Source of the DNA: an uncultured Bacteroidota bacterium
GTDB taxonomy: Bacteria; Bacteroidota; Bacteroidia; Bacteroidales; GCA-2748055
Assembly: GCA_963783435.1 (NCBI GenBank)
Contig: CAWANQ010000004.1
Location: 148,560 to 212,559, forward strand
Direction: 5' to 3'
DNA: 64,000 nt
Part shown: piece by piece, positions 30,740 through 61,093 of the stretch
How the letters are laid out: each line of letters begins with the position of its first letter
Position numbering within the stretch: position 1 is the first letter of the stretch
Notes under the pieces: model-generated
The model's input: the letters and a program-made list of their open reading frames with translations, nothing else
The model's database searches: none
Told to the model about the DNA's origin: nothing
Made by a program: the position numbers and the translations under genes

Positions 30740-30756
30740 TTTTTAAATATTGCAAA

Positions 30757-41363: not shown

Positions 41364-41367
41364 TTCG

Positions 41368-41553
41368 TCAGGAGTTTGCGGAGCATTTTTGTCCTGTACA
41401 CCATAATACAGTGTCCACTCTGACGATTTCGTAGAATTTAATGATATGATCTCTTTGGTAGATAGGTTTGCTATTCACCTCTTTTAGCGTCTGCGCATGA
41501 ATGGAAAAGACACTAAACATTCCAATAATCATACAGTATAATAATCGTTTCAT
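41368..41553 (-). other. Orphan signal-peptide ORF: the displaced 5' end of the GH2 gene
   Basis: MKRLLYCMIIGMFSVFSIHAQ.. is a signal peptide. The ORF runs into the +1 frame of the GH2 N-terminus. The homologous leader of the next gene is 1 nt shorter in the stretch 41454..41468. Confidence 0.7.
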
Positions 41554-41575: not shown

Positions 41576-41576
41576 C

Positions 41577-43412: not shown

Positions 43413-43434
43413 TCTGATATAACGTTAGTTTTTG
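43294..43434 (-). repeat. Duplicated 5' cassette, sulfatase copy
   Basis: See 41434..41575. This copy is in frame (119 nt versus 120 nt in the GH2 copy). Confidence 0.75.
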
Positions 43435-43464
43435 CCAATTTCTATTTTTTGCCACCTAACTTAT

Positions 43465-45441: not shown

Positions 45442-45447
45442 GGTGTT

Positions 45448-46893
45448 TTAATTTTTGTTAATTTCTGAGAGTTTGTTTTGCAACTCAATTTTCATCCTTT
45501 CAAGCTGTTGCTTATAAGCCGGATTTTTATATAAGTTAAACTCTTCACCCGGATCATTCTTCAGGTCATACAATTCATTCATTTCATCGGTATCCAGGCC
45601 AACATATTTGACATATTTCCAATCCTTCGTTCTCACAGCTTGCCACGATGGTGTGTTTCGTGCTACTTTTTCGTGAAAATATTCTGCGTAAAAAGACGTT
45701 CTCCATTCGACCTCTTCTGACTTAAACAGCGGCAAAAATGATTTTCCATGTACAGGAATCAATGGTTCTACACCTACAACATCATATACAGTTGGTGCCC
45801 AATCAATATTTGACACCATTTCATCTATTTTACTTCCTGCTTCAATTATTTTTGGATATCGAATGAAAAATGGTACGCGCAATACATTGTCGTAAGCCCA
45901 CCGCTTTGTATGGAATCTATTATGTTCTCCCATAAGCATTCCATTATCGCTGGTATAAACAATAATTGTATGGTCCAGCTGCCCTTTTTCTTCAAGTACT
46001 TTTAATATTTCCCCAACACCTTCATCAACACTCAACAAACAGCGCATCTGGTCTGCAACTATGCTTGTTCTGTCGTTACCTCTTCCTCGTCTTGGCTCAC
46101 CCGGCTCAGGAACAATGCTCTCATATTCATAACTGGGTTTCCATGGCACATCCCTTTTTAATACAGGCTTACTCTCGATATTACCTTCGTTGACAAGCGG
46201 TGATTCGTACGCATAATCAGCATAGTAAGCATCATGTCTCTCAGCCGGTATTATGGGGGCATGAACCGCTTTATGTGAAAGAATCATCGCGAAGGGTTGA
46301 TTTTTGCTATTCTTCTTTAGAAATTCCACAGCCTGCTCATTAAGGTAATCGGTCATATTACCATCAATTTGTTTGATAGTCCCTTCATCATTAACTACGC
46401 CATTGACAAAAATTCCCTGTCCTTTGAAACTTAACCAACGATCAAATCCGGGACGACGAGAATCATCAAGCCCCATGTGCCATTTACCAATAAATGCAGT
46501 TTTATAACCGTTCTCGCGTAATTGCCGTGGCCATGTCATTAAGGTATGGCTGATTACATCGAGGCCTACGCGGTCGTTGTTTGTTACCTGATGTTGTTGC
46601 GCATACTGTCCGGTAAGAAAAGTGGCTCTACTTGGTGAACATAGCGGTGTAGCTACAAAGAATTTTTCAAATGTCGCCCCCTCTGCCGCAATTCTGTCAA
46701 TATTTGGAGTTTTTGAAACTGGATTTCCTTCAATACCAGTTAATCCACATTGTTGATCATCGGTGATAATGAAAATAATGTTAGGCAGATCAGAAGAACT
46801 CTGGCTCCCATTTGTACACGAAAGAAAAGAGGTCGCTATCATTAAAAATGCTAAGGATTTCAGACTAATTATATTTGCAGGCCTCATATTCAT
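45448..46893 (-). CDS. S1 sulfatase (Cys-type)
   Basis: 481 aa with a lipoprotein signal (SFLSC). NIIFIITDDQ, LCSPSRATFLTG, YTSDNGMLMGEH. Confidence 0.92.
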   Translation of the reverse strand: MNMRPANIISLKSLAFLMIATSFLSCTNGSQSSSDLPNIIFIITDDQQCGLTGIEGNPVSKTPNIDRIAAEGATFEKFFVATPLCSPSRATFLTGQYAQQHQVTNNDRVGLDVISHTLMTWPRQLRENGYKTAFIGKWHMGLDDSRRPGFDRWLSFKGQGIFVNGVVNDEGTIKQIDGNMTDYLNEQAVEFLKKNSKNQPFAMILSHKAVHAPIIPAERHDAYYADYAYESPLVNEGNIESKPVLKRDVPWKPSYEYESIVPEPGEPRRGRGNDRTSIVADQMRCLLSVDEGVGEILKVLEEKGQLDHTIIVYTSDNGMLMGEHNRFHTKRWAYDNVLRVPFFIRYPKIIEAGSKIDEMVSNIDWAPTVYDVVGVEPLIPVHGKSFLPLFKSEEVEWRTSFYAEYFHEKVARNTPSWQAVRTKDWKYVKYVGLDTDEMNELYDLKNDPGEEFNLYKNPAYKQQLERMKIELQNKLSEINKN

Positions 46894-46915
46894 ACTAAAT
46901 TAGAGAGGTGAAAAC

Positions 46916-48390
46916 TCACCGTTTTTTATAATCAGGATTAAGTCTTAGTTCTTTTGCCTCTACATCGGTTTTCCACTTGTGGAGTTTGCCTAAAAGCTCT
47001 TCCGCTTTTTGTGGCTCGGTACCCACCAGGTTATTTTCCTCTCCTATATCATCGGCCAGGTTATACAATTCGATATGTCCATCCTCAAGGTATTCCAGTA
47101 ATTTCCAGTTGCCATCACGTATTGCGCTGACCGGCCTCGTTTCATAATAGTTATGTGGAAAATGCCAGAACAAAGCCCTGTCTTCAAGAGTTTTCGCCTC
47201 TTTCCCTTCCAGTAAAGGCAAGAAGCTCTTCCCTTCAATATTCTCCAAATGATCAGGTATGCCTGCAATATCCAACACTGTGGGTAAATAATCGATTGTA
47301 CTAATTGGAATATCAATTTGTTGTCCCTTACCCGGATTCCTGGGATAATAAATCATGGTTGGTATGCGAATCCCTCCCTCATACAAAGAGCCTTTTCCCT
47401 CCCTTAGCGGGAAGTTATCGGTAACAACCTTGCCCTTATATTTCTGAATGACTCCTCCGTTGTCTGATGTAAACACTATTATTGTATTTTCTGAAATACC
47501 TAGTTCATCCAACTTATGGAGTAAGCGACCCACATTGTCGTCCACATTTTTCACCATAGCCGCATAGACTTCGTTTTGATGATGATACTCCGGTGAGAGC
47601 TTATTTTTAAAGTAGTCAATGTCTTCGGCTTTTGCCTCTAGTGGTACATGCACATTATAGTAAGATAAATTAAGAAAAAACGGGCGAGAACCGGCATCTT
47701 CAATCATTTTCATAGCTTCGTTCGTCAACCTGTCTGTGAGGTATTCACCTTCTCTATTGGTGAAATATTTTCCATTGGCACCCATCCCTAAATCGCCAAC
47801 GAAGCGAAATTCGTCATAAACAATACCCGTATAAGGGTAGAAGAAAGTGGGCGGAGCACCTCGTTGACTTGAGGCTACGCTTACATCAAAACCCTGTGTA
47901 TTAGGAAAGTGCATGTAATCTCCAATATGCCATTTACCCACATGAGCAGTCAGGTAATTTTTTTGGCGAAGTATCTCGGCAACAGTTGTCTCTTCAAGGG
48001 GCAGGTTTTCAAGGGTTAAGGGTGGAAGGTATTGAGATGTCTCTTTTCTCTTTCCTTCTGCGTTTGCCGTTGCCGCTTCGCTCCATACGGTATAGTTTAG
48101 CTTTGCCGGGGTTTTGCCTGTCATTATCGATGCCCGGGTTGGCGAGCATACAGGGCCTGCCGCATAGCTGCTGGTAAAAACCATGCTTTTCTCTGCAAGC
48201 CGATCGATATTGGGGAGTTTCGTGAAGTTCTGCACCATAGCAGCCCAGGTCAGCCCAGCCTAAATCATCGGTCACAATAAATAGAATATTGGGCTCAGTC
48301 ACCTGCTTGTATGGAGTTCTGTGTTTTATTGCAAGCGGATAGGATAATACTTACCAGCAAAATGATTAATAATATATTTTTCTTTTTCAT
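46916..48390 (-). pseudogene. S1 sulfatase interrupted by two frameshifts near the 5' end
   Basis: Three frames are involved. The signal peptide MKKKNILLIILLVSIILSAC runs from the ATG at 48390. TEPNILFIVTDDLGWADLGCYGAELHETP is in ORF 48009..48302. NIDRLAEKSMVF..VCSPTRASIMTGK.. is in ORF 46916..48238. The second shift is at a run of 4 C (plus-strand GGGG 48212..48215); removing one C restores ELHETPNIDRLA. Confidence 0.85.
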
Positions 48391-48430
48391 GTAACTAACC
48401 CATTAATACGTTCTTACTATTATGATTTAA

Positions 48431-50425
48431 TTATTTTATTGTCTCTGAGCAGAACGAAGCCGCCGGAAGCCCTTCTTCATTAAACAAATTTGGGATCGCG
48501 GTATCCGTCCATCCAAAACGTACATTTTTCGGAGACTTAACCTCAGGACTGTGGACAATTATATTATTCTTGTCAATTTCAGCAATAGCTTGATGGTACT
48601 TTCCATCCTCGCCGGCTATCTCAAAAAATGTTAGTCCCTTGTCTGGCGAGTATAAACCACTACCTACATTGTCAAAGCTAACTCTTATGCTGTTTCCTTC
48701 AACACACATACTTTTATAGAGAGGACCTGAGTAGACGATATCACTTTTGCCATAAGTCTTGTTCAATGCCCATAATGCTAATCGCTTGCCTACATCTTGC
48801 TTATTAGCTGGATGAATGGTCTGTAAACTTCCTATATCAGAAGTTACGACCATTCCTGTATTAGGTAACTTTAAGGCTAAGCGCTGTGCTTCTCTTAAAA
48901 TTGGCGCTTTTCCTGAACCGTAATTGTGAGGAGCTATCTGCACATAGTAAAATGGGAAATCGCCTTGAGACCAATTGCTGCGCCAAGCTTCTATCATAAG
49001 GGGGAATGATTTGGCGTATTCCTCGGCTTTCGCTACATTATTTTCACCCTGATACCATATAACGCCTTTTATTTTATATGGTATAAGTGGGGCAATCATT
49101 GCATTGTAAAGTACGGTTGGACTTTTTTGACTTAACAATAATTTTGGTCTGTTTTCTAAATTTAAAATAGTATTAAAAAGTCGAAAGGTTGATGGATTTT
49201 CAAAGCATCCCAACATTTTGTATTTCCAATCGCCTTTCAACGAAACAATCAGCTTATTTCCATTTCTGATGCTCGATTCTTCTTTGTAAATGCCTCCACC
49301 ACCTGCATTATCCATTACCCGAACAGCCACAACATTTCGACCATTTTTTAACAATCCTGCAGGAATTGTATAAACTCTATCAGTTTGCCAACCTTCCTTT
49401 CCTCCAATCTTGACTCCATTTAAGAAGGTGGCATCCAAATCATCTATTGGACCTAAAAATAATTTGTATTCTTCTCTTGAGATATCACCATTAAATATGA
49501 ATTCTTTACGGTACCAGACTATTGCATCAATGTCGCCAAATTGAGCCTCAAATCCATTTGGAATTTCGTGCTGTTCCCAATCTGCATCATCTTCATCTAA
49601 ACCATTGAATACTGGTAAAATTGAATCCATCAAGTCATTCATCTGACTGTATGACCGGTTTGAGAAATCGTATTTCTCCATTCCCTGTATCCAGTGCTGA
49701 TAACTAATTTTGCTTTGTTCATCAGTGCTAATGTCGTTACGAATATTGGTGAAGCGTTCAATTTTTTCTGCAAAGTCAACAGGCATCCAGCTTTCAACCG
49801 GAGTTCCTCCCCATGTAGATTGGATCAATCCAATGGGAACATCTAATTCCTGAGTTAAATTTTTGGCAAAAAAGTAGGCAACTGCAGAAAATTCACCTGC
49901 ATTTTCGGGTGTACATATCTTCCATGAGCCATCACATTCTTCTTGAGCAGACAGTGCCATTTCACGTTGTGTTTTAAACAATCGAATATTCTGAAAATTA
50001 GCCTTAGAAATTTCTTTTAAGGAATTGGCAATTGAGTCTTTTGGTAAAAAGCCTTTCAATGGCATTGCCATATTTGACTGACCCGAGCACAGCCAAACTT
50101 CACCAAGCATAACATTCTTAATAATAATGTTATTGGCAGATGAAATTTCGATCTGAAATGGACCCCCGGCAGATGTTGTTGCAATATATGCAGTAAACCT
50201 CCCGGTATTATCTGTTATTACAGCGATAGATTTATCATTCCAGGAGGTATGGATCTTTATTTTGGAATCAGGATTTGCCCATCCCCATAAAGGGACATTG
50301 CTTTGCTGTTGAAGCACCATATTATCCTGAAATAATGGCGCTAAAGAAATGTCAGATTTTTTTGTGCATGAGACAAAAAATCCTAAGCAAAAAACAATTA
50401 TTAACAGGATTGATCTTGTTCCCAT
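48431..50425 (-). CDS. SASA-family carbohydrate O-acetylesterase (sialate-O-acetylesterase-like)
   Basis: 664 aa with a lipoprotein signal (FFVSC). SGNH-like GQSNM motif (LCSGQSNMAMPL). WYQGENN. Confidence 0.85.
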   Translation of the reverse strand: MGTRSILLIIVFCLGFFVSCTKKSDISLAPLFQDNMVLQQQSNVPLWGWANPDSKIKIHTSWNDKSIAVITDNTGRFTAYIATTSAGGPFQIEISSANNIIIKNVMLGEVWLCSGQSNMAMPLKGFLPKDSIANSLKEISKANFQNIRLFKTQREMALSAQEECDGSWKICTPENAGEFSAVAYFFAKNLTQELDVPIGLIQSTWGGTPVESWMPVDFAEKIERFTNIRNDISTDEQSKISYQHWIQGMEKYDFSNRSYSQMNDLMDSILPVFNGLDEDDADWEQHEIPNGFEAQFGDIDAIVWYRKEFIFNGDISREEYKLFLGPIDDLDATFLNGVKIGGKEGWQTDRVYTIPAGLLKNGRNVVAVRVMDNAGGGGIYKEESSIRNGNKLIVSLKGDWKYKMLGCFENPSTFRLFNTILNLENRPKLLLSQKSPTVLYNAMIAPLIPYKIKGVIWYQGENNVAKAEEYAKSFPLMIEAWRSNWSQGDFPFYYVQIAPHNYGSGKAPILREAQRLALKLPNTGMVVTSDIGSLQTIHPANKQDVGKRLALWALNKTYGKSDIVYSGPLYKSMCVEGNSIRVSFDNVGSGLYSPDKGLTFFEIAGEDGKYHQAIAEIDKNNIIVHSPEVKSPKNVRFGWTDTAIPNLFNEEGLPAASFCSETIK

Positions 50426-50486: not shown

Positions 50487-51125
50487 TTACGCAAAAAAGT
50501 GATATTCCAGCATTTCGCAAAGCGTGTGATATACAGGCAGATGAAGTTCCTGTATCTGGGGAGTTGAGTTTCCACCCACATTAATCAATACGTCACAATA
50601 CGTATTAAATTCACCACCATCGCGCCCAACAAGCCCAATTACTTTCATTCCTTTCGCCCTGGCAACAAGCATTGCTGCAATAACATTTCTTGCCTTACCT
50701 GACGTAGATATTCCAAGTAAGACATCTTCTTTATTGCCATAACCAACAACCTGCTGTGCATAAATCAATTCTGCATCTACATCATTGGCAAAGGCTGAGC
50801 TTAAAGCACTATGGCCATTTAGCGAAATTGCAGGTAAGGCTCCTTCCAGGTTCTTAGCTAAATATTCACCCCGTTCGCCGAATTCTTTGACCAAATAACT
50901 TTGAACAGAGTCAGGGATTGACCTGTCTCTTGAAAACTGCTTCATGAGTTCACCTACAATATGGTCGGCATCTGCAGCACTACCCCCGTTCCCGCACACC
51001 AGAAGTTTCCCCCCCTTTTCATAGGAAGATCGTATTATTTCATATCCGCTGGCAATATCCGTAGCAGCCAGGGATAACTCCGGGTGGCGGTTAAAAAGGT
51101 CTTGTAATAATTCTTCCGTCCTCAT
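50487..51125 (-). CDS. SIS-domain sugar-phosphate isomerase (GmhA-like)
   Basis: 212 aa. GKLLVCGNGGSAADADH and ISTSGKARNV are the SIS/phosphoheptose-isomerase-type motifs. It overlaps the upstream kinase gene by 35 nt. Confidence 0.8.
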   Translation of the reverse strand: MRTEELLQDLFNRHPELSLAATDIASGYEIIRSSYEKGGKLLVCGNGGSAADADHIVGELMKQFSRDRSIPDSVQSYLVKEFGERGEYLAKNLEGALPAISLNGHSALSSAFANDVDAELIYAQQVVGYGNKEDVLLGISTSGKARNVIAAMLVARAKGMKVIGLVGRDGGEFNTYCDVLINVGGNSTPQIQELHLPVYHTLCEMLEYHFFA

Positions 51126-52113
51126 TGACTAATGTATTTATGTGGGAATATCCATCAATTGCTACGCTGAGAGCGGCATAATCGCCCACATTATCACCCA
51201 ATTCTGCAGGGACAATTTTGCACACATTCCATGCACCTGTTAAGGCTTCTTTTTCAATTACTTTTGTTGTCAAGTCATCAAATAATTGTGGATTTCTGGC
51301 GTAAACACTGCCAATAACAATCCGTTCAGGATTTATTATATCGATGATAATTGAAAGGCCTTCTCCAAGTTTCTCAGCCGATATTCTGAACAATTCCAGT
51401 GCATCTTCATCGCCCTCGTTGGCCATCTTTGCCAGTTTTGCTGTAGTAATGCTGTTCAAATCATCATGCGATTGGCAATACGAGGTTTTCTCACCGCTGG
51501 TTAGTTTTTCTTCGGCCTTTATCTGTGCCAGTTTGGTGATTCCGGAACCACTGCAGAATCCTTCAAATGAACCAGCCTTGTTATAACCGACAGGTCCATC
51601 TTCCTCAAGGCGTATATGCCCCACCTCTCCCGCATTATCGTTTGTTCCGGTATACAGCTGACCATTGAGGATTAAACCTGCTCCCAATCCTGTCCCAAAG
51701 GTTAAAAACACCATATTCTCGACCCCCTTCCCTGCACCGAATTTCCATTCGGCCAATGCACAGGCATTTGCATCATTCTGTATAAAAGCTGGTATTCCTG
51801 TTTTTTCTTTGATTATCTCTACGATGGCGATATTGTCCCATCCGGGTAGGTTTGGAGGTGAATATATGATGCCGGTTTTACTGCTCAAGGGTCCTCCGCA
51901 ACTAATTCCAATCGCTTTAAGGTTCCGCGATTTAAATATTTTTTGTAATTCAGCAATTCCTTCTACTATTTTTGAAATGGCATAATCGGGTCCTTTTTCT
52001 GTATGGGTAGCAAATTGAATCCGGTGCAAAATTTCCATTTCTTCGGTTCCGGCAAGAACCGTACATTTTGTTCCTCCTATATCAATTCCCAAATAATAGC
52101 TATCTATTTTCAT
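51091..52113 (-). CDS. ROK-family sugar kinase (no DNA-binding domain)
   Basis: 340 aa. YLGIDIGGTK ATP-binding start, ISCGGPL, NDANACALAE, AGEVGHIRL. No N-terminal wHTH. Confidence 0.85.
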   Translation of the reverse strand: MKIDSYYLGIDIGGTKCTVLAGTEEMEILHRIQFATHTEKGPDYAISKIVEGIAELQKIFKSRNLKAIGISCGGPLSSKTGIIYSPPNLPGWDNIAIVEIIKEKTGIPAFIQNDANACALAEWKFGAGKGVENMVFLTFGTGLGAGLILNGQLYTGTNDNAGEVGHIRLEEDGPVGYNKAGSFEGFCSGSGITKLAQIKAEEKLTSGEKTSYCQSHDDLNSITTAKLAKMANEGDEDALELFRISAEKLGEGLSIIIDIINPERIVIGSVYARNPQLFDDLTTKVIEKEALTGAWNVCKIVPAELGDNVGDYAALSVAIDGYSHINTLVNEDGRIITRPF

Positions 52114-53290
52114 CTGAATTACTTTTGCGTTTGTCTCCTGATTTTGATTTCATATACAAGCTTATGATCAGCAGATATAAAATCACGATTAACAGTACAA
52201 TGAAGCTTTGCACTACTCCAAATTTTGAACTTACAAATCCCATTAATGGCGGGATGAATGCACCGCCGGCCACCGCCATAATCATCAGTCCTGAGATTTC
52301 ATTCACACGATCCGGAAGTTTTTCGACTGCAAGAGAAAAAATCATTGGGAATATGTTGGCCGCTCCCAATCCAACTCCGAAAATTGCGATGCGTGCTATC
52401 CAGACACTGGGTGCAAACAGCAATAAAACAATACCTCCGGTTGCTAAAATTGCCGATAGTATGAAGAAATTCTTTGTTTTGATAAATCGTAAGAAAATCG
52501 CTCCAATAAACCGGCCAATCATTTCTGCGGTAAAAAAAAGGGTAATTCCCAAAGAGGCATTATCAAGGGTTAAATGAAACCTATTTTGCAGATAATTGGC
52601 AATATTTGAATTCATTCCCACCTCAGCTCCGACAATCATGAATATGCCGATTACCAGGAGTAAAATTGTCCGGTTTCCCAACAAGGAGAAACAGGAGCGA
52701 AAAGTCGCCGGTTTTTGTTTCAGTTTTGCTTCGGAAATTGGAGTCAGGAATAACCACAAAGTAGTTAAGAATGAAACACCCGCATAAACGGCAAAAACCA
52801 ATTTCCAGTTTCCAAACCGCACCGCCATAAAAGCGGCGATGACGGGCCCAAGCAATGAGCTGCTTGCTTTAACAAACTGGCTTAGACTCATGTAGCTGGA
52901 ATACTTATCTTTCGCTACCACATCATGTAGCAGAGGATTTGCTGCAACCTGCACGATCGTATTTCCAATACCAAGAACAACAAAGGCACCTAACATTGTC
53001 GCAAATGAATAATGCACAAAAGGCACTATCATCGACAATCCGGTCAATAGCATACCGATATTGGTTAGATTCTTCTTGCCGAAACGTTCAATCAATAAAC
53101 CGGCCGGAACGGAAAAGAGGAAAAACCAGATAAGCGCCATTGAAGGCAGAAACTGGGCCACATTATCTTCCAATCCAAAATCATTCTTAATATATCCGGT
53201 GGAAACCCCAACGATGTCGATGAAACCCATAACAATGTATACCATGAAAACAGGCATAACCTTAACGGAATTGCTTTTTAATTGCGACAT
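52100..53290 (-). CDS. MFS sugar:H+ symporter (FucP / glucose-galactose transporter type)
   Basis: 396 aa, ~12 hydrophobic segments. The N-terminal region GFIDIVGVSTGYIKNDF and ERFGKK loop resemble FucP/GluP transporters. Confidence 0.8.
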   Translation of the reverse strand: MSQLKSNSVKVMPVFMVYIVMGFIDIVGVSTGYIKNDFGLEDNVAQFLPSMALIWFFLFSVPAGLLIERFGKKNLTNIGMLLTGLSMIVPFVHYSFATMLGAFVVLGIGNTIVQVAANPLLHDVVAKDKYSSYMSLSQFVKASSSLLGPVIAAFMAVRFGNWKLVFAVYAGVSFLTTLWLFLTPISEAKLKQKPATFRSCFSLLGNRTILLLVIGIFMIVGAEVGMNSNIANYLQNRFHLTLDNASLGITLFFTAEMIGRFIGAIFLRFIKTKNFFILSAILATGGIVLLLFAPSVWIARIAIFGVGLGAANIFPMIFSLAVEKLPDRVNEISGLMIMAVAGGAFIPPLMGFVSSKFGVVQSFIVLLIVILYLLIISLYMKSKSGDKRKSNSDENR

Positions 53291-53370
53291 AGACTATTGT
53301 TTATTCGTTTTTTCAATGGGTAATGCACTCAGCACGATTCCCTGTATGGTCCTTTAAAACCAGAGAAAAA

Positions 53371-53398
53371 GGAGCCATGACTAAATAGCCATGGCTCC
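53371..53398 (-). terminator. Intrinsic terminator downstream of the tandem beta-helix gene
   Basis: GGAGCCATG-N10-CATGGCTCC (9-bp GC-rich stem). On the minus strand it is followed directly by TTTTTCTCTGGTTTT. It lies between the stop at 53447 and the MFS start at 53290. Confidence 0.6.
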
Positions 53399-53446
53399 CA
53401 GATTTTCATGTACCAGACTATCAAAAATGATTCTTTCGCTTCTGAT

Positions 53447-56400
53447 TTATTTTGTCAGGATCATTTTTGAAGTGCTGATCTGGCCTTCATTCATAAAGCT
53501 ACAATAGTAGATTCCGGCAGGCATATGGCTTGCATCCCAGATTACTGTATGCAATCCTTCACTTCGTTCCTCGTCTACCAATACCTGAACAAGGCTCCCG
53601 ATTGAGTTATAAACCTCTAGCGTTACATGTGAATGATTTTCCATCGAGAACTCAATCTGGACTGCAGATTTAAATGGATTCGGATAAGTCTTTAATCCGG
53701 GATTTCCGGAGGCTGTCAGGTTTGCATCTTTATTTGAAACTTCCGTTTCATAGGCCTGAAGAATGGCACTCAATGAAGCTTCAGAATCAAAACCATCAAT
53801 TTCACTGGTCCAGTGCAATGCTCCGATCGAATATCCATCGCTCTCTGACTTAAAGCTTGCTCCGATAGAAAAATCTTCTATCATGTCTGAGAATAGGGTA
53901 ATCCCATCGCCATCTTCCGTTTCTACACCCGGTATGGTGGTCGGATCAAAATCGCCAAAATAATAGCCGCTGAAATCCGGAGTTCCTGTTTCTTCCGCAA
54001 CTTCATACATTTTACGCATCCAGATAGCAAGTTGTTCGGCTGCAGCTTCTGAGATCCCCTCTGTTGCCAGCTGTGGATCCTGGCCAAGAATGTTATTCTC
54101 TTCCTTGATTCCGCTGTAGTTGGCAAAAAAGGCATTTTCTCTTTCTGCCATCCAGTTTGCGGGCACATTTACGGTATGAGGGCCGGCTGTTCCAAACCAG
54201 TTAATGTATGATACAGGATTGTCGGCTATGGCATTATATTCTCCATTGTAATACTTATCCAATGTGGACTCATTGAAATAGATATTGTCGGCCACATACG
54301 TTTTATAGTTGTTTATATCATTATATGGAGCTAACAGGGCCGTTGAATCGGCATTCATGGCATATCCGGGAAGAGCTTTCGTCCCTATCTTGATATCAAG
54401 GGTATCAAAAGGTATAATAGGTGTAGATACTTTATCCGGAGCCGCCTGAATAATGTTAAAATCTTCGCCGATCATGTTGCAGTTATAAAACACATTGTTG
54501 GTAATATATGACTCGTAATTATAATGGTTCAGCGTTAAAAATGTACTTGTATTGATAAATGTGTTATGGTTAATGAGGGCATATTTCACAAATTGCTGTT
54601 GTAAGAGCAACACGCATTGTCCGTTGGATACTGTATTATTTTCAAATACCAGTTTTTCTACAGGGACATACTTGGCATCTATGACATTCCCGGCCCACAA
54701 TTGACCTCCATTAAAGAAGTCCCTGAAATAATTGTTCCTCATTTCTATTTCAAGGCCCTGAGGCACATCCTGCAGTTTGAAACCTCTCTGTGCAAATTCG
54801 ATCAGGCAATCCTCAACAGTCAGCTTCCTGTCATTCCCTATTAATATAAACAAGTAGTTTTTCCAATAGCCGCCTTCGTCATTCCGGCCTTGTATATGGA
54901 GATTTTTTAACTCCAGGCTGGAAGTTATCCTGTTTTGCCCCGGTTCAACACCATTATCTACCACAGGAATAATAACGGGTTTCTTGCCCCCTTCAGCTCC
55001 CACTATTTTTATGGTGCCGCCATCGTTTTGTACATTAATGGCTGACTTGACAAAGTGAAAGCCTTCCTCTAATTTGTAAACCCTGTCAGGATGAATACGG
55101 TTACCGTCTCCATCCTTGTCTCCGTTAATGGTAGTCTCCAGAAGCCCTGCATTTTCCGGGCCGCTAGCAATAACGATGGTGTCCTCCTGGCTTGCCTGGG
55201 TGCTGTAGGCCAGAAGAATCGCATTCAATGAAGTTTCAGAATCAAAACCATCAATTTCACTGGTCCAGTGCAATGCACCGATCGAGAATCCGTCGCTCTC
55301 TGACTTAAAGCTTGCTCCGATGGAAAAATCTTCGATCAGGTCTGAGAATTGGGTAATCCCGTCGCCATCTTCCGTTTCTACGCCCGGTATGGTGGTCGGA
55401 TCAAAATCGCCAAAATAGTAGCCACTGAAATCCGGAGTCCCTGTTTCTTCCGCAACTTCGTACATTTTACGCATCCAGATAGCAAGTTGTTCGGCTGCAG
55501 CTTCTGAGATCCCCTCTGTTGCCAGCTGTGGATCCTGGCCAAGAATGTTATTCTCTTCCTTGATTCCGCTGTAGTTGGCAAAAAAGGCATTTTCTCTTTC
55601 TGCCATCCAGTTTGCGGGCACATTTACGGTATGAGGGCCGGCTGTTCCAAACCAGTTAATGTATGATACAGGATTGTCGGCTATGGCATTATATTCTCCA
55701 TTGTAATACTTATCCAATGTGGACTCATTGAAATAGATATTGTCGGCCACATACGTTTTATAGTTGTTTATATCATTATATGGAGCTAACAGGGCCGTTG
55801 AATCGGCATTCATGGCATATCCGGGAAGAGCTTTCGTCCCTATCTTGATATCAAGGGTATCAAAAGGTATAATAGGTGTAGATACTTTATCCGGAGCCGC
55901 CTGAATAATGTTAAAATCTTCGCCGATCATGTTGCAGTTATAAAACACATTATTGGTAATATATGACTCGTAATTATAATGGTTCAGCGTTAAAAATGTA
56001 CTTGTATTGATAAATGTGTTATGGTTAATGAGGGCATATTTCACAAATTGCTGTTGTAAGAGCAACACGCATTGTCCGTTGGATACTGTATTATTTTCAA
56101 ATACCAGTTTTTCTACAGGGACATACTTGGCATCTATGACATTCCCGGCCCACAGTTGACCTCCATTAAAGAAGTCCCTGAAATAATTGTTCCTCATTTC
56201 TATTTCAAGGCCCTGAGGCACATCCTGCAGTTTGAAACCTCTCTGTGCAAATTCGATCAGGCAATCCTCAACAGTCAGCTTCCTGTCATTCCCTATTAAT
56301 ATAAACAAGTAGTTTTTCCAATAGCCGCCTTCGTCATTCCGGCCTTGTATATGGAGATTTTTTAACTCCAGGCTGGAAGTTATCCTGTTTTGCCCCGGTT

Positions 56401-56725
56401 CAACACCATTATCTACCACAGGAATAATAACGGGTTTCTTGCCCCCTTCAGCTCCCACTATTTTTATGGTGCCGCCATCGTTTTGTACATTAATGGCTGA
56501 CTTGACAAAGTGAAAGCCTTCCTCTAATTTGTAAACCCTGTCAGGATGAATACGGTTACCGTCTCCATCCTTGTCTCCGTTAATGGTAGTCTCCAGAAGC
56601 CCTGCATTTTCCGGGCCGCTGGCAATAACGATGGTGTCCTGGTCTGCTGGCACTTGCGCGTAAGTTATTGTGGTTGTTATCGCCACAATAAAAGCCACAA
56701 TCAAAAGTAAAGTTCTCTTTTTCAT
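53447..56725 (-). CDS. T9SS-secreted protein made of two near-identical ~485-aa beta-helix-like modules
   Basis: 1092 aa with a signal peptide. Each module carries beta-helix-like turns (NLHIQGRND, VEDCLIEF, IEMRNNYFRD, VFENNTVSNG, LINHNTFINT, ITNNVFYNC). The C-terminus KTYPNPFKSAVQIEF..GIYYCSF..ILTK is a T9SS CTD. Confidence 0.88.
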   Translation of the reverse strand: MKKRTLLLIVAFIVAITTTITYAQVPADQDTIVIASGPENAGLLETTINGDKDGDGNRIHPDRVYKLEEGFHFVKSAINVQNDGGTIKIVGAEGGKKPVIIPVVDNGVEPGQNRITSSLELKNLHIQGRNDEGGYWKNYLFILIGNDRKLTVEDCLIEFAQRGFKLQDVPQGLEIEMRNNYFRDFFNGGQLWAGNVIDAKYVPVEKLVFENNTVSNGQCVLLLQQQFVKYALINHNTFINTSTFLTLNHYNYESYITNNVFYNCNMIGEDFNIIQAAPDKVSTPIIPFDTLDIKIGTKALPGYAMNADSTALLAPYNDINNYKTYVADNIYFNESTLDKYYNGEYNAIADNPVSYINWFGTAGPHTVNVPANWMAERENAFFANYSGIKEENNILGQDPQLATEGISEAAAEQLAIWMRKMYEVAEETGTPDFSGYYFGDFDPTTIPGVETEDGDGITQFSDLIEDFSIGASFKSESDGFSIGALHWTSEIDGFDSETSLNAILLAYSTQASQEDTIVIASGPENAGLLETTINGDKDGDGNRIHPDRVYKLEEGFHFVKSAINVQNDGGTIKIVGAEGGKKPVIIPVVDNGVEPGQNRITSSLELKNLHIQGRNDEGGYWKNYLFILIGNDRKLTVEDCLIEFAQRGFKLQDVPQGLEIEMRNNYFRDFFNGGQLWAGNVIDAKYVPVEKLVFENNTVSNGQCVLLLQQQFVKYALINHNTFINTSTFLTLNHYNYESYITNNVFYNCNMIGEDFNIIQAAPDKVSTPIIPFDTLDIKIGTKALPGYAMNADSTALLAPYNDINNYKTYVADNIYFNESTLDKYYNGEYNAIADNPVSYINWFGTAGPHTVNVPANWMAERENAFFANYSGIKEENNILGQDPQLATEGISEAAAEQLAIWMRKMYEVAEETGTPDFSGYYFGDFDPTTIPGVETEDGDGITLFSDMIEDFSIGASFKSESDGYSIGALHWTSEIDGFDSEASLSAILQAYETEVSNKDANLTASGNPGLKTYPNPFKSAVQIEFSMENHSHVTLEVYNSIGSLVQVLVDEERSEGLHTVIWDASHMPAGIYYCSFMNEGQISTSKMILTK
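53746..56655 (-). repeat. In-frame tandem duplication, 2 x 1455 bp
   Basis: Period 1455 bp; track ORFs 54617..54844 and 56072..56299 encode identical peptides, and 53923..54168 and 55378..55623 near-identical ones. I compared the two copies line by line. There are only 3 differences (all synonymous) across 54006..55185 vs 55461..56640, but ~18 differences across the 255 bp 53751..54005 vs 55206..55460. Confidence 0.95.
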
Positions 56726-56808
56726 AATGTTTTATTTAAATTAAACATGAGAAGGGATGAATAAAAGTTGGCAGCCCTTCTTTTGCTGCTGCTTTATGGT
56801 ATTTTAAG

Positions 56809-59800
56809 TTAAAACCGATAACCCGCTCCCAATTGAAATCTGCTGCCGTAATATTGACTGCTTACCGGCAACCGCACATCTCCATAATAAATTTTATAGT
56901 CTTCGTCAATATGATTGGTCAGGTTGGTCGCATTAAAATATATGTACAGACCTTTGTAAACCCGCATTTTCAAACTAATATCCAGCAACTGGAATTTGTC
57001 CGCATAATTATCTGCAAAAGAGTATTTAGCATCCAGTCCGCTGAGTGTTTTTCCTTGAAAACGGTAAGACACCCTGGCACTAAATCCTTTGTAATCCCAT
57101 CCCAGTATAACATTCGTAATAAAGCTGGGCTGAGATACCATCTTCCCTTCCCTGGTATTGTACTGATACCCGATGATATCTTTTGGCAGGAAACCAGAAC
57201 TGTCAACGCCTACCACTACATTTTCAAAATATGGGTACTTCGTTCTGGAATTAATAAATGTTAGATTCACATCTAATACAAACCCCCTTAGCCATTCATT
57301 ACCCAGACTCCAAAGATTCCTTTGATAGGACAACTCCACTCCATAGTATTCTGCTTTTTCAGGATTGTTAATGGGTATTCCTGTACTGCTCGAGTTCGTC
57401 AAATCATCTACAGGGTAGAAATCAGTTCCTGGCAGTGATCCTACAAATCCATCCGGGGCCTCCACAATTCTATCGTTTCGAAGCGGAAAATAGTTGGGAA
57501 GATGAGATATAAAATGATCTATTTGCTTATAAAAAGGATTGACAGTCAAAAGTCCAAATTTACTGTTGTACACCTCTAAAGAGATGTCATAATTCCAGGC
57601 AGTGGATGGTTCCAGAAAAGGATTGGCTGATGTAAATACGGTTTTAGCCTGATCCGAATCGATAATGGTTTTAGGAGATAACTGGAGAAAGCCCGGGCGG
57701 GAAACACTCTTGTAAACAGCTCCCCTCAAAGCGACAGATTCACCAAATTGATATTTTGCGTTTACAGATGGGAAAAATAAAAGATTATCACGTTCTACCG
57801 ATACCGAATCAGGAACCCCGGAAAGTCCATTTGCGTTCACACTATTCGTTACTATGGCAAAGGCATCATATTGGGTATTGACTTTTTCCATGCGTATTCC
57901 AGGCACCAACAGCAGCTTCCCAATATTTAATTCAGCCATGATATAGGCTGCTATTTGTTCTTCCCTATTGTTATAGTCGTTCGTATAACTTTCGAAGCCC
58001 CTGGCATTATATAAAAGAGGGTAACTGGCATAGAGCTGGGATTGCATATCTTTCATCAAACCTATATCCGGCGACCAATTCAGGGCATATTTCCCATCGA
58101 GAAATTCCCCCGGATCATAATCCGGATCAACAAAGTTTGTTGCAGTTATCCCGGTTTGATCCCCGTCAGGCCAATCTACCCAGGGGAATAGAGATAGATA
58201 TGTGGATTTTGCTCCCTGTCCCTTGCCAGCACGGTAATCCACATAAATAGCATCTGAATTGCTAACTCTTTCCAATAAATGGTATTTCCCTCCCACTGAT
58301 AAAACGCCATCTGTTCTTAGTTTTACAAGATTAAAGGGAATGCGCCATTCTAAATCCAGATCATAGTTCTTATCTGTCAATTCTGAATTGTTGAGATCAT
58401 CTGTTTGAAGTTTGTTAGCAGGAATGCTGGTTTCTCCATAGAGGTCCAGCACCTCTTCCGGCTCCCTGAATATTAACCAGTCCTGATCTATATCCTCCCC
58501 TGTTGTACTGACTTCTCTGAAAGGAAAAAGATGAGTAATGCCATCCGTGTTGACATGGGTATAAGACAGACTCAAGTTCAGTTCCGTACCTAGAAATCGC
58601 AATTTGTTCTCTAATAAATGGGTGGAATTTATGCGCTCATTTTCCCCGGATGAAGCATTCAGTCTGAATGGATATGTTGGATCTGAAAAGTTATGGTTCT
58701 CCTGTCTGTTAATAACATCATCTGTACTTCTATTGATAAGATTCAGGAAAGCCACATCATAAAAATCACTCTTAAAATCCAGCACCATGCTTACACCAAT
58801 ACGCTCACGGTTGGTGTTTACCAGGGATAAGCTTGCGCTTTGTGTCCTTGATATAAAAGATTCTTCACCTGTTAAATTGCCTGTGGAATCCAGCTCCTGC
58901 TGTATAATGGGACCTGAATACCCGGCTCCGAAACGTTGGGAAGAAAGCTGTTTCCTCTCATAAGTTGCCTGGGCTTTAATCCCGAATCTGTTCTGAAGAA
59001 AACGCGTACTCCCTCCAAGTGATGTCTTGGAATCGCCAATATTTGAGAACAAATTGCTATATCCGACTTCTGTCATAGCGTTTAAACCAGGTTTATTGTT
59101 CGCTGTTGCCAACCTCAGGTCAACCGTTCCTCCAATAGCACCTGCATCCATATCCGCGCGCAGTGTTTTAGAAACCTCTACACCAGATAGCATCTCACTT
59201 TGTATCATGCTCAAGTCGGCACTTCTATCTCCAGCATTTGTGGAGGCCATTTTTACTCCCGCAATGGTTACATTATTCTGAGCAGACGACACCCCCCTGA
59301 TTACGATCTTATTTGCTTCACCAGAAGATCTTTGCAGAGAAATACCCGGGAGTCTACCGATTGCCTCTGCAGCGTTTGCATCTGGTAATTCCTCCATTTT
59401 TTCTGCAGATACCACATTGACAATTTTATTGGAGGCCACCTGTTCCCTGATCGCCGAATTCTGCCCCAAAACCTGTACAGTTACAGTAACCTCCTCAAGT
59501 ACTTCGCCAACAATCAGTTCAAAGTTCAGAGTTACCGTTTGATTGCTATTGACCACAACCTGCTTCTCCAGGGAGTTATACCCGATAAAGGAGGCAACCA
59601 GGGTATATGTTCCAGGTCTCACGCTGATCTCATACTTCCCTTCCAGATCGGTGGAGGTCCCAATGGTGGTGCCCGGAATAGAGACATTGGCAAACTGCAG
59701 GGGCAGTTTCGTTGAAGCATCCGATACCTTGCCGATAATTGCTCCATTTGACTGGGCCCATCCGGTGGCGGCAAAGTACAAAACGAATATGGCCATCACA

Positions 59801-59880
59801 GCCAGTGATTTTAATACTTCTGCTCCTTTTGTCCGGGACTTTTCTTTAAGCTGATAGTCCTTTTTCGTGAATCCAGTCAT
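56809..59880 (-). CDS. TonB-dependent outer-membrane receptor with a carboxypeptidase-regulatory-like N-terminal domain; no adjacent SusD-like gene
   Basis: 1023 aa with a signal peptide. N-terminal IIGKVSDASTKLPLQFANVSIPGT..GKYEISVRPGTYTLVASFIGY. Plug region (IGRLPGISLQRSSGE..IVIRG). Long beta-barrel ending ..QLGAGYRF. Confidence 0.9.
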   Translation of the reverse strand: MTGFTKKDYQLKEKSRTKGAEVLKSLAVMAIFVLYFAATGWAQSNGAIIGKVSDASTKLPLQFANVSIPGTTIGTSTDLEGKYEISVRPGTYTLVASFIGYNSLEKQVVVNSNQTVTLNFELIVGEVLEEVTVTVQVLGQNSAIREQVASNKIVNVVSAEKMEELPDANAAEAIGRLPGISLQRSSGEANKIVIRGVSSAQNNVTIAGVKMASTNAGDRSADLSMIQSEMLSGVEVSKTLRADMDAGAIGGTVDLRLATANNKPGLNAMTEVGYSNLFSNIGDSKTSLGGSTRFLQNRFGIKAQATYERKQLSSQRFGAGYSGPIIQQELDSTGNLTGEESFISRTQSASLSLVNTNRERIGVSMVLDFKSDFYDVAFLNLINRSTDDVINRQENHNFSDPTYPFRLNASSGENERINSTHLLENKLRFLGTELNLSLSYTHVNTDGITHLFPFREVSTTGEDIDQDWLIFREPEEVLDLYGETSIPANKLQTDDLNNSELTDKNYDLDLEWRIPFNLVKLRTDGVLSVGGKYHLLERVSNSDAIYVDYRAGKGQGAKSTYLSLFPWVDWPDGDQTGITATNFVDPDYDPGEFLDGKYALNWSPDIGLMKDMQSQLYASYPLLYNARGFESYTNDYNNREEQIAAYIMAELNIGKLLLVPGIRMEKVNTQYDAFAIVTNSVNANGLSGVPDSVSVERDNLLFFPSVNAKYQFGESVALRGAVYKSVSRPGFLQLSPKTIIDSDQAKTVFTSANPFLEPSTAWNYDISLEVYNSKFGLLTVNPFYKQIDHFISHLPNYFPLRNDRIVEAPDGFVGSLPGTDFYPVDDLTNSSSTGIPINNPEKAEYYGVELSYQRNLWSLGNEWLRGFVLDVNLTFINSRTKYPYFENVVVGVDSSGFLPKDIIGYQYNTREGKMVSQPSFITNVILGWDYKGFSARVSYRFQGKTLSGLDAKYSFADNYADKFQLLDISLKMRVYKGLYIYFNATNLTNHIDEDYKIYYGDVRLPVSSQYYGSRFQLGAGYRF

Positions 59881-59885
59881 TATTA

Positions 59886-59901
59886 GCTAAATGGTTTTAG
59901 C
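59886..59901. promoter_or_regulatory. Candidate LacI-family operator O1 (GCTAAA-TGGT-TTTAGC)
   Basis: A 16-bp palindrome with perfect 6-bp arms, 6 nt upstream of the TBDR start codon. Confidence 0.5.
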
Positions 59902-59961
59902 AATATTGGCAAATAAAAATTCCTTAGTGGATCAACTTTTTCATTTTTCTTTGACACAAGC

Positions 59962-59977
59962 GCTAAATTGTTTTAGC
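59962..59977. promoter_or_regulatory. Candidate LacI-family operator O2 (GCTAAA-TTGT-TTTAGC)
   Basis: Same palindrome as O1, 76 bp away, between the LacI stop and the TBDR start. Confidence 0.5.
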
Positions 59978-59997
59978 AAATTAATGACAAAAAAAAA

Positions 59998-61014
59998 TTA
60001 AACGCAAGAATTTCTTGAAATATAATCAACTTTTAATTGGATTCTTTCTGGTTCGCGGTCTGGTTTGTCATCCTTTATCATTGAAAATAGTATTCTAATG
60101 GCCTCTTTGCTCATTTTTTCGAGCGGCTGTTTTATGGCAGAAATTGTTGTGGAGGATATCCGGTAAGCATCTGTATCGTCAAAACTGATAACAGCCAGGT
60201 CTTCAGGAATAGAGAGTCCAAGCTCCCTGATACATTCAATACCGGTGATCCCCAATTTATTCGTCGTAAAAAGAATTGCATCTGCTTTTTGTTCCACGAT
60301 TCCCTTAATGGCCCTCATGATGGGACTTTTTTCGTGACTGAATTTCAAATTTTTAATGATGGACGGATCGGGAATAATTCCATGCTGTACCAGGGCATCG
60401 GCATATCCTTCTGCTCTTTGTTGCATAGATACCAATTGTCTGTTTGTATTGAGAAGTGCAATCCGTTTTCTGTTGTAATTAATGAGTCTAACGGTTGCAT
60501 CATAAGCGGCGGTGTGATTATTGATATTTACCGAGGAAGCCTTGACCTCTGGAAAAAGCCTGTCAAGAATCACATACGGTATTCCATCTCTTATTAAACC
60601 CGAAAGCAGTTTTTCACTTCCAATCGGCGGGGTGATAATCAATCCTTCCACATGCCTCTCTTTTAGTATATTCAGCTGGACAGTAAATTTTGTTTTATTC
60701 TCATCCGAACTGCTGAATACTACCATGTAATCGTGCTTAAAAGCCTCTATCTCAATAAACCTGGCAAGGCTGGCAAAGAAGGGATTGGAAATATCGGCAA
60801 GAATTACACCGATGGTTCTGGACTTACCGGTCCTCAGGCTCTTTGCAAGATAATTGGGCCGGTAATTCATGCTTTCTGCCATCTCAAGTACCTTTGCCGT
60901 CATCTCCTTACTGATCCGCATCTCCTTGCTTTTTCCATTGAGCACGAAAGAAACCAGTGTAACGGACACACCAAGTTTATTGGCGATATCGGTAATTGTT
61001 TTTCGTCTGGACAT
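59998..61014 (-). CDS. LacI-family transcriptional regulator
   Basis: 338 aa. N-terminal HTH TITDIANKLGVSVTLVSFVLNGK followed by a periplasmic-binding-protein-like sugar-binding core. Confidence 0.9.
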   Translation of the reverse strand: MSRRKTITDIANKLGVSVTLVSFVLNGKSKEMRISKEMTAKVLEMAESMNYRPNYLAKSLRTGKSRTIGVILADISNPFFASLARFIEIEAFKHDYMVVFSSSDENKTKFTVQLNILKERHVEGLIITPPIGSEKLLSGLIRDGIPYVILDRLFPEVKASSVNINNHTAAYDATVRLINYNRKRIALLNTNRQLVSMQQRAEGYADALVQHGIIPDPSIIKNLKFSHEKSPIMRAIKGIVEQKADAILFTTNKLGITGIECIRELGLSIPEDLAVISFDDTDAYRISSTTISAIKQPLEKMSKEAIRILFSMIKDDKPDREPERIQLKVDYISRNSCV

Positions 61015-61077
61015 CAGATACTTCGAATTAAGCCGGAAACGTTCCAGCCAAACAAATATATTCGATTAATTTGATTA

Positions 61078-61093
61078 GCAAAAACGTTTTAGT
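61078..61093. promoter_or_regulatory. Candidate LacI-family operator O3 (GCAAAA-ACGT-TTTAGT), upstream of the LacI gene
   Basis: One mismatch per arm relative to O1/O2. The central AAAACGTTTT is a perfect palindrome. It lies 64 nt upstream of the LacI start. Confidence 0.4.

Follow-up and report, generated by a model that had tools for sequence, protein, structure and literature searches.

A LacI-associated, SusD-less TonB-dependent receptor locus with a predicted T9SS beta-helix partner in an uncultured Bacteroidota bacterium

General features of the locus

The locus described here lies in a 64,000-nt stretch of contig CAWANQ010000004.1 (assembly GCA_963783435.1) from an uncultured Bacteroidota bacterium; this whole stretch, at its full length, is called the window. 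On the minus strand, a gene for a LacI-family repressor was followed by genes for a TonB-dependent receptor (TBDR) and a beta-helix protein with a type IX secretion system (T9SS) sorting domain, then by a terminator-like hairpin and by genes for a major facilitator superfamily (MFS) transporter, a ROK-family kinase, a SIS-domain isomerase, a SASA-type esterase, sulfatases and a GH2 enzyme (Table 1). Domain scans agreed with the gene order and coordinates that a first-pass annotation, made from the sequence letters, had proposed. The locus probably encodes a glycan-uptake system that works without SusD and has the receptor and the beta-helix protein at its core.

The first-pass annotation had also reported that no SusD-like gene occurs in the 64 kb. 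A Pfam scan of a set of open reading frames (ORFs) of at least 150 aa, taking in all ORFs of at least 400 aa, gave zero matches to the SusD families PF07980, PF14322, PF12741 and PF12771, and no second TBDR was found in the same scan. Two ORFs of 556 aa and 1006 aa at 11718-16395, whose sizes fit a hidden SusD/SusC pair, were found to encode a sulfatase and a T9SS protein.

Class of the receptor

The receptor matched the NCBIfam model TIGR01782 (TonB-Xanth-Caul) with 372.7 bits (cutoff 310), its aa 128-1023 covering positions 1-868 of the 868 in the model. With the SusC/RagA model TIGR04056 it reached 73.7 bits against a cutoff of 368.25, and this match was confined to aa 49-227 (model 4-171), covering the N-terminal extension and the start of the plug. 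The first-pass annotation had set the receptor apart from Sus-like systems, and it did not score as a typical SusC. An N-terminal CarboxypepD_reg extension was located at aa 48-133 (PF13715 over aa 49-133, 74.8 bits) and a plug domain at aa 151-252, and a TonB-box-like EEVTVTV was present. By these profile matches, the receptor is classed as a Xanthomonas/Caulobacter-type barrel with a Bacteroidota-style N-terminal extension. The gene directly 3' of it encoded the T9SS beta-helix protein and not a SusD-family protein.

Related loci are given L numbers below. The partner receptors of L001, L004, L035 and L036 all passed TIGR01782 (331-364 bits) and all failed the SusC model. An identical receptor protein was encoded on an independent short-read contig (L039). 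Sequence relatives in the PDB covered the N-terminal extension and plug region only; apart from two very weak matches to the colicin I receptor, the sole match was 9gbc (E = 2e-14, aa 26-275), from the paper 'Structural basis of iron piracy by human gut Bacteroides'.

Beta-helix protein and its family

The T9SS protein had an N-terminal Sec signal peptide, read from the sequence by eye (MKKRTLLLIVAFIVAITTTITYA, followed by Q after the cleavage point, without a lipobox cysteine), and a C-terminal sorting domain that scored 41.1 bits with PF18962 (cutoff 27; aa 1014-1089) and 32 bits with TIGR04183 (cutoff 23). The AlphaFold2 model of a single module, built with 30 sequences, had a pLDDT of 83.8 and a pTM of 0.86 and displayed short repeating strands at aa 64-262. 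In a Foldseek search of the PDB with this model, nearly all listed matches were beta-helix proteins, mostly carbohydrate-active enzymes; they included PL6 chondroitinase B and alginate lyases, PL1 pectate lyases, AlgE epimerases, RbmB, GH87 and phage tailspikes or depolymerases. PF13229 gave 25.0 bits on a single module, below its cutoff of 25.9; the beta-helix call was based on the AlphaFold model and the Foldseek matches. These bore out the beta-helix named in the first-pass annotation, and on the model the assignment of a right-handed beta-helix fold was sound.

A PDB search with the family profile returned the sorting domain as the only match, leaving the module without a PDB sequence relative, and a Pfam search at E ≤ 10 added nothing beyond the sorting domain. 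A single-module query (aa 1-508) retrieved 216 homologues; the 120 listed ones were of about 605 aa, corresponding to one module plus the sorting domain. They came from marine Flavobacteriia, Saprospiria and similar metagenome-assembled genomes (MAGs) and were annotated, if named at all, as hypothetical or T9SS sorting-domain proteins, with the sorting domain as the only domain. An exact look-up of the 1092-aa product found no record elsewhere. Judged from these sequence comparisons, the module of the T9SS protein is a new protein family without annotation.

The family comprised at least 286 clusters at 50% identity (E ≤ 1e-30), some of which matched through the sorting domain only. A profile search of 1.84 billion representative proteins revealed a wider superfamily that shared only the N-terminal beta-helix. 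All of its members that were examined had a T9SS sorting domain, and CBM35, Big_2 or fn3 modules were sometimes present. Profile-profile comparison of two subfamilies gave a probability of 100% (E = 8e-52, 25% identity, 288 columns), and members of the paralogous subfamily were also found in Balneolota and KSB1.

Alignment of 69 sequences (21-66% identity) showed a conserved polar stripe with a spacing of about 25 residues (E/D158, R183, E210 and H235), and the N-terminal residues D51, R63 and Y65 were likewise conserved. Of these, E/D158 and E210 fall on one face of the predicted helix. A Foldseek search with the full-length model of the paralogue from Melioribacter roseus was dominated by carbohydrate-binding modules and beta-sandwich domains and did not sharpen the function. 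In one source, the M. roseus protein was named '5'-nucleotidase domain-containing protein'.

Conservation of the receptor and beta-helix gene pair

A genome scan with only two peptide patterns yielded 28 genome loci, and in 24 of them a TBDR homologue (27-68% identical to the window receptor) flanked the beta-helix gene. It lay directly upstream in all flanked loci except L018 and L020, where the order was reversed; the beta-helix genes of the 4 loci without a flanking receptor were additional paralogues within two MAGs. On the contigs retrieved by exact look-up, the receptor gene was likewise directly upstream in every case. The search for the pair in other genomes, which the first-pass annotation had called for, thus found it conserved well beyond close relatives: distant paralogues, 23-29% identical (L035-L038, and L040 from M. 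roseus P3M-2, Ignavibacteriota), each lay directly downstream of a full-length receptor relative.

When 29 distinct pairs were compared with the pair of the window, receptor identity and beta-helix protein identity were correlated with r = 0.97. The pair spanned Bacteroidota, Ignavibacteriota and loci labelled Neomarinimicrobiota, and occurred in many marine MAGs as well as in cultured Ignavibacteriota and Saprospiria. It persisted while the surrounding regulators, transporters and enzymes changed completely. Given the fixed adjacency, the parallel divergence and the hairpin boundary described below, the pair behaves as a self-contained unit, much like susC/susD. Precomputed Pfam calls were available for ten related loci, and in the 10 kb to each side of the pair they contained no SusD. 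Among 43 unassigned ORFs from 28 related loci, no SusD family was matched by two or more, the top 25 of 72 families being listed, so that a single weak SusD match is possible.

Two paralogous receptors enclosed the core-family member with the greatest divergence (29% identity; L034:6708-15088). In two loci (L001:422-5463 and L004:239-2827), recombinase, transposase or integrase genes bordered the cassette upstream of LacI. This hints that the whole cassette is mobile; mobility would be consistent with MAG taxonomy labels that disagree with protein similarity.

Module duplication

The beta-helix protein had been described as double in the first-pass annotation, and the repeat proved stronger than that. 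The protein consisted of two tandem copies of a 485-aa module, in frame, with a DNA period of 1455 nt, which exceeds the limit of Tandem Repeats Finder; the repeat was measured by script. The copies had 22 mismatches in 1431 nt and were 98.5% identical in amino-acid sequence. Their first 1150 nt or so were 99.7% identical, and the differences were mostly clustered at the 3' end.

The two-module structure is real. An assembly artefact of a truly single-module gene would be in line with the single-module form of all 120 listed homologues, with the lack of another record of the exact product and with frameshifts in the window that suggest long-read indel errors. It is nevertheless very improbable, because the reading frame was intact and the copies differed at 22 positions. 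In addition, the short-read contig L039, from another data set and with an identical receptor, stopped at nt 135 of the gene. The last copy difference was at nt 105, and a graph with k=31 would branch 30 nt further on, so this contig end points to a real repeat. Two further assemblies carried two-module genes as single ORFs: L007:4386-7703, with a period of 1470 nt and copies 94.7% identical, and L011:9956-13273, with a period of 1455 nt and copies 100% identical. Short-read assemblers tend to collapse such repeats, so the single-module calls may undercount the two-module form.

A tree of the modules placed each copy pair as sister to a different single-module protein, and the junctions differed by a few residues. 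The simplest reading of this tree is three separate recent whole-module duplications; alternatively, an old duplication may have been homogenised by gene conversion, with the single-module calls being collapsed assemblies. At L028:8102-11770, two separate tandem paralogue genes were found. Module duplication thus seems to recur across lineages, and such recurrent, separate duplication of a whole module would be a small natural experiment in domain dosage.

Predicted regulation and unit boundaries

The LacI protein was a generic family member, below every NCBIfam equivalog cutoff. As expected for the LacI/GalR family, it combined an N-terminal LacI helix-turn-helix with a periplasmic-binding-protein-like sugar domain, and predicted operator palindromes lay near the receptor gene. 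Two 16-bp palindromes, O1 and O2, were the only GCTAAA-N4-TTTAGC sites in 64 kb, and both were within the 117-bp spacer between the LacI and TBDR genes. When one mismatch was allowed, no further site was found in 64 kb, with a chance expectation of 0.16. The relaxed motif CTAA-N6-TTAG was also searched for in 13 related loci, each about 20 kb long, and occurred in them solely between the LacI and TBDR genes.

The form of the palindrome followed the repressor. L014 and L017, whose LacI proteins were 59-79% identical to that of the window, had retained the GCTAAA-N4-TTTAGC form ahead of the TBDR gene. Loci with LacI proteins 45-53% identical had a variant palindrome at the equivalent place: it was perfect, with the core CTAACACGTGTTAG, in L001, L004, L010, L012 and L013, and L011 had a one-mismatch version, CTAACACGAGTTAG. 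Because the palindromes occur only in the LacI-TBDR spacer and their variants track the divergence of LacI, there is good comparative evidence for LacI control of the receptor unit through these predicted operators, as the first-pass annotation had proposed. A weak candidate third operator upstream of lacI was rejected: at its level of mismatch 4 matches were found against 3.2 expected, which is not above chance, and only its position was suggestive.

A terminator after the T9SS gene, likewise proposed earlier, was recovered as a hairpin with a T run between the beta-helix stop codon and the MFS start codon, the only strong hairpin in 52900-61600. Strong hairpins with T-rich sequence also followed the beta-helix stop codon in L001, L004, L010, L011, L013, L014, L023 and L035, and the sequences of these eight hairpins differed from that of the window. 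The spacer between the TBDR and beta-helix genes was 83 nt long and had no terminator. We propose that the TBDR and beta-helix genes form a two-gene transcription unit with its own operators and terminator.

A conserved, RNA-like element was found in this spacer when the window was compared by eye with L001, L004, L007, L009, L010, L011 and L013. The stem GCAGC..GCTGC was replaced by TAGTAG..CTACTA or GGTAG..CTACC in other loci, and a T-rich run followed this first stem. The purine-rich loop AAAAGAAGGG can pair with a downstream CCCTTCT, and this pairing covaried; compensatory changes were thus seen by eye in both stems. RNAalifold on the spacer alignment returned the second stem only, and weakly (-2.56 kcal/mol). 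The element could be a pseudoknot, an alternative hairpin pair or a weak attenuator that sets the ratio of receptor to partner expression.

Table 1. Features of the locus in window coordinates
Feature	Position	Strand	Details
LacI-family repressor	59998..61014	-	338 aa; PF00356, PF13377 and PF00532 all above cutoffs
TonB-dependent receptor (TBDR)	56809..59880	-	1023 aa; Pfam and NCBIfam
T9SS type-A cargo protein	53447..56725	-	1092 aa; signal peptide, two tandem beta-helix modules (predicted), C-terminal sorting domain
Module 1	55190..56644	-	aa 28-512; predicted right-handed beta-helix at about aa 30-265, then mixed alpha/beta region
Module 2	53735..55189	-	aa 513-997; tandem repeat of module 1, in frame and nearly identical to it
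T9SS type A C-terminal sorting domain	53459..53686	-	aa 1014-1089
Operator-like palindrome O1	59962..59977		GCTAAAACAATTTAGC on minus strand; exact GCTAAA-N4-TTTAGC
Operator-like palindrome O2	59886..59901		GCTAAAACCATTTAGC; 5 nt upstream of called TBDR start codon
Weak candidate third operator (rejected)	61078..61093		64-79 nt upstream of lacI start; 2 mismatches
Conserved intercistronic element	56750..56792	-	in 83-nt spacer; stem GCAGC..GCTGC; by-eye comparison of 8 loci
Terminator-like hairpin	53370..53399	-	13-bp stem, 7 G-C pairs, T run, -24.8 kcal/mol
MFS inner-membrane sugar transporter, gluP-like	52100..53290	-	PF07690, 134 bits
ROK-family sugar kinase, cytoplasmic	51091..52113	-	PF00480, 196.8 bits
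SIS-domain, GmhA-like sugar-phosphate isomerase	50487..51125	-	PF13580
SASA-type carbohydrate O-acetylesterase	48431..50425	-	PF03629, 80.7 bits; lipoprotein signal
Four S1 sulfatases	41577..48430	-	first sulfatase at 46916-48238
GH2 beta-mannosidase homologue	39063..41553	-	signal peptide out of frame with body

Neighbouring genes and likely substrate

The best NCBIfam match of the MFS transporter was the glucose/galactose MFS family, below cutoff, and its gene overlapped the ROK gene by 14 nt. The closest PDB relatives of the SIS protein were phosphoheptose isomerases. The SASA esterase had an N-terminus with a Cys lipobox, and the signal peptides and lipoboxes of the locus proteins fitted their proposed compartments. 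The GH2 enzyme matched PDB entry 9nfe with 709 bits; this entry is CapGH2b, a beta-mannosidase of subfamily GH2_13 whose activity has been confirmed biochemically (PMC12770490). The corresponding cassettes of L001, L014 and further loci also contained GH2 orthologues.

Many flavobacterial loci resembled that of the window in having LacI, MFS, ROK, SIS, SASA and GH2 genes, with sulfatases being optional. The company of the pair differed in more distant loci: a hybrid two-component regulator, GH26 and SSF in Neolewinella antarctica; SSF, GH130, a 2-epimerase-family protein and GH9 in L035 and L036; GH5, GH27 and epimerase-family fragments in L037; and an epimerase-family protein, GH9, GH5, GH88 and GH26 in M. 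roseus. Genes linked to beta-mannan (GH2, GH26, GH130, 2-epimerase, GH27, GH5 and acetylesterases) recurred across the related loci, where the pair almost always had such genes as neighbours; from this we infer beta-mannan or glucomannan as the common substrate theme. Beta-mannan occurs in diatom blooms. The genomic company of the family thus offers a concrete substrate candidate. The core cassette of L001 contained no other candidate endo-enzyme.

The window as a whole was a sulfated-glycan island with about 12 sulfatases, two GH29 fucosidases and GH141-like, GH31, GH3 and GH2 enzymes. Its only other T9SS genes were two more cargo genes. The first, at 13375-16395 (minus strand), encoded a 1006-aa product with the sorting domain only and overlapped a sulfatase gene by 14 nt; the second, at 50-1294 (plus strand), encoded a Big_7 protein with T9SS cargo status. 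A second beta-helix protein, GH141-like, was encoded at 4546-6867 (minus strand). It matched PF13229 and the GH141 insertion domain, had no T9SS tail and differed in its domain matches from the T9SS beta-helix protein. A block at about 22000-32700 (plus strand) had a G+C content of 0.45-0.49 against 0.37-0.43 around it. It contained the two GH29 fucosidases, a Fib_succ_major protein, a Laminin_G_3 protein, three ORFs without a Pfam match and a divergent ROK/MarR-type regulator (29501-30739). This block may have been acquired separately.

Proposed mechanism and alternative explanations

With a probability of about 0.6, the locus is a LacI-repressed, SusD-independent glycan-uptake system whose invariant core is the two-gene unit of receptor and T9SS beta-helix protein. 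The protein families, palindromes, hairpin, conserved pair, genomic company and duplication were found as described above; what is proposed are the substrate, a catalytic role of the beta-helix protein, the cell compartments, the effector and the route through metabolism. In the proposed scheme, the T9SS would export the beta-helix protein, whose extracellular target would be a glycan rich in beta-mannosides; O-acetylated beta-mannan or glucomannan is the probable candidate, and in this genome it would be sulfated as well. The beta-helix protein would most likely be an endo-acting depolymerase that readies the mannan-type glycan for import, and the receptor would import the resulting oligosaccharides. 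The esterase, as a periplasmic protein or lipoprotein, would trim these oligosaccharides together with the sulfatases and the GH2 beta-mannosidase. The MFS transporter would take up the monosaccharide, and the ROK kinase and the GmhA-like SIS isomerase would pass it on to glycolysis. A sugar effector would detach LacI from O1 and O2 in front of the receptor gene.

Several observations weigh against this scheme. The Foldseek matches of the module were weak (best E-value 4.6e-4, TM-scores 0.25-0.35), and no catalytic motif of a known family was recognised; the conserved residues D51, E/D158, R183, E210 and H235 could not be assigned to a known catalytic set. We know of no beta-mannanase built as a beta-helix. 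Endo-mannanases of GH26 or GH5 are already encoded in several related loci, so that depolymerisation does not have to fall to the beta-helix protein. Because about 12 sulfatases, two GH29, GH141 and GH31 are present, the substrate in the window may be a more complex sulfated glycan. A motif search of the 64 kb found no operator upstream of the MFS gene. In the GH2 and first sulfatase genes, the signal peptide lay in another frame than the body (41364-41576 and 48239-48430, respectively), and the conserved N-terminal motif of the sulfatase was also out of frame, upstream; these frameshifts are either long-read indel errors or recent pseudogenes. Many of the related loci are MAG contigs with unreliable taxonomy labels.

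For the beta-helix protein, cleavage was placed slightly ahead of mere binding, because the folds nearest to the model are mostly enzymes, CBM35 modules occur on paralogues, polar residues are conserved and no other endo-enzyme is present in the core cassette. The competing explanation is a non-catalytic surface glycan-binder, a T9SS-anchored functional analogue of SusD or of a surface glycan-binding protein, docked on or near the receptor and passing on oligosaccharides made by other enzymes. Such a binder would account for a position beside the receptor that is fixed over very deep divergence, directly downstream in all but two loci, as in SusC/SusD and unlike PUL (polysaccharide utilisation locus) enzymes, which shuffle. 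It would also suit the GH26 or GH5 endo-enzymes already present in the N. antarctica, M. roseus, L037 and L006 loci, the few acidic residues conserved across the superfamily and the lack of a recognisable known catalytic motif, and the recurrent duplication would raise its avidity. However, CBM35 modules are more typical of enzymes than of binders, E/D158 and E210 are conserved on one helix face, and a binder would leave the core cassette with no endo-enzyme; it is thus a possible but rather doubtful explanation. A lyase, suggested by the best structural matches (PL6 and PL1), was ranked below a hydrolase or binder, since no uronate-pathway or unsaturated-glycuronidase genes were present in the conserved cassette.

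The adjacency itself could be inherited operon structure, with the beta-helix protein being a freely released enzyme without a special tie to the receptor and the locus a SusD-less enzyme cluster of known type. Non-canonical PULs without SusC/D are known (PMC9122927; PMC13543919), half of the TBDRs of Gramella forsetii have no adjacent SusD (PMC4069401), and the beta-helix gene had no receptor in 4 of the 28 genome loci. Against this, the pair was retained in Bacteroidota, Ignavibacteriota and Neomarinimicrobiota-labelled loci although the regulators, transporters and enzymes around it had been exchanged completely, it has its own predicted operator and terminator boundaries, and its two proteins diverged in parallel (r = 0.97), which makes inherited adjacency unlikely. 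With the two-gene core as the preferred explanation, docking of the receptor and the beta-helix protein is possible. A bolder version would be a physical outer-membrane complex, a second coupling of glycan capture or cleavage to TonB import that evolved independently of SusC/SusD across the Fibrobacterota-Chlorobiota-Bacteroidota group (Bacteroidota, Ignavibacteriota and probably others). It would be dedicated to glycans of the beta-mannan type, the module would be a new family of carbohydrate-active enzymes (a beta-helix mannan depolymerase), and duplication would tune avidity or stoichiometry; as a whole, this version is offered tentatively and is more likely to fail than to hold.

Comparison with known systems

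Glycan use by marine and gut Bacteroidota has been mapped nearly entirely through SusC/SusD, as in PULDB and in the SusC/D expression proxies used for algal blooms. A conserved receptor-plus-partner unit without SusD would thus be invisible to SusC/D-based surveys and PUL predictors. For example, a survey of marine beta-mannan PULs required a SusC/D pair (PMC9860051), so its screen would miss these loci. SusD-independent TBDRs and non-canonical PULs are already known in marine Bacteroidota (PMC4069401, PMC9122927, PMC13543919). The pairing of a TIGR01782-type receptor with a T9SS beta-helix protein, which the first-pass annotation had called undescribed, was not found in the literature searched, including the genome paper of M. 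roseus and a September 2026 review of glycoside transporters.

A CUT locus (carbohydrate utilization locus containing a TBDR) combines a TBDR gene with neighbouring genes that encode enzymes of carbohydrate degradation, a transporter of the inner membrane and a regulator related to sugars (PMC1790865). All four are present here, and by this published definition of gene content, the locus is predicted to be a CUT locus, in agreement with the CUT-like layout first noted. Like the CUT loci of Xanthomonas campestris and Caulobacter crescentus, it has a LacI-type repressor, a TIGR01782 TBDR, an MFS transporter and carbohydrate enzymes and lacks SusD. Unlike them, it belongs to a Bacteroidota host, its receptor has a CarboxypepD_reg extension of the Bacteroidota type at the N-terminus, and a seemingly obligatory T9SS cargo gene comes after the receptor gene. 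To our knowledge, Proteobacteria cannot have T9SS cargo genes. Blanvillain et al. (2007) found no characterised Bacteroidetes TBDR with significant similarity to those of Xanthomonas and argued for convergent evolution (PMC1790865). The present locus places the CUT-type receptor class in Bacteroidota; in earlier work, Proteobacteria and Bacteroidetes had been linked by convergent evolution only.

In the PULDB definition, a canonical PUL has tandem susC-like and susD-like genes (PMC13543919), and the window locus has no such tandem. As in Sus-like PULs, the gene directly after that of the TBDR encodes a predicted cell-surface or secreted protein, both genes are passed on together and show parallel divergence while their company changes, and the N-terminal extension and plug of the receptor are similar to the corresponding parts of SusC; the N. 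antarctica locus also has a hybrid two-component regulator. In contrast to Sus-like PULs, the barrel is not of the SusC/RagA type, and the partner is a predicted beta-helix protein with a T9SS sorting domain, not a TPR-like lipoprotein. Non-canonical PULs without local SusC/D include the carrageenan regulon of Zobellia galactanivorans, as cited in PMC13543919 and PMC9122927. The window locus shares with this regulon a carbohydrate-enzyme cluster without SusC/D in a marine flavobacterium-like genome, and differs from it in having a built-in receptor of a different class and a dedicated partner gene.

BtuB-BtuG (B12) and XusA-XusB (xenosiderophores) are TonB-dependent transporters of Bacteroidota that are not SusC and have surface lipoprotein partners. 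The window locus likewise has a non-SusC TBDR and a downstream partner predicted to be extracellular; however, the partners in BtuB-BtuG and XusA-XusB are lipoproteins of other folds that act on non-glycan cargo, and the similarity of the window receptor to 9gbc is N-terminal only. Flavobacterium johnsoniae ChiA is a PUL enzyme secreted by the T9SS that belongs to a known GH family and works with SusC/D pairs. As with ChiA, the window locus encodes a T9SS sorting-domain protein within a predicted glycan-uptake locus, but this protein has no known family and sits in the SusD position. The chitin PUL is among the systems cited in PMC13543919.

With PL6, PL1, AlgE, RbmB and GH87 proteins, the module shares the predicted fold class at TM-scores of 0.25-0.35, without a sequence relationship or a recognisable catalytic motif, and the conserved cassette has no uronate-pathway genes. 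Compared with all of these systems, the locus is a variant of the known TBDR-based glycan-uptake (PUL/CUT) systems with a new protein family at its core.

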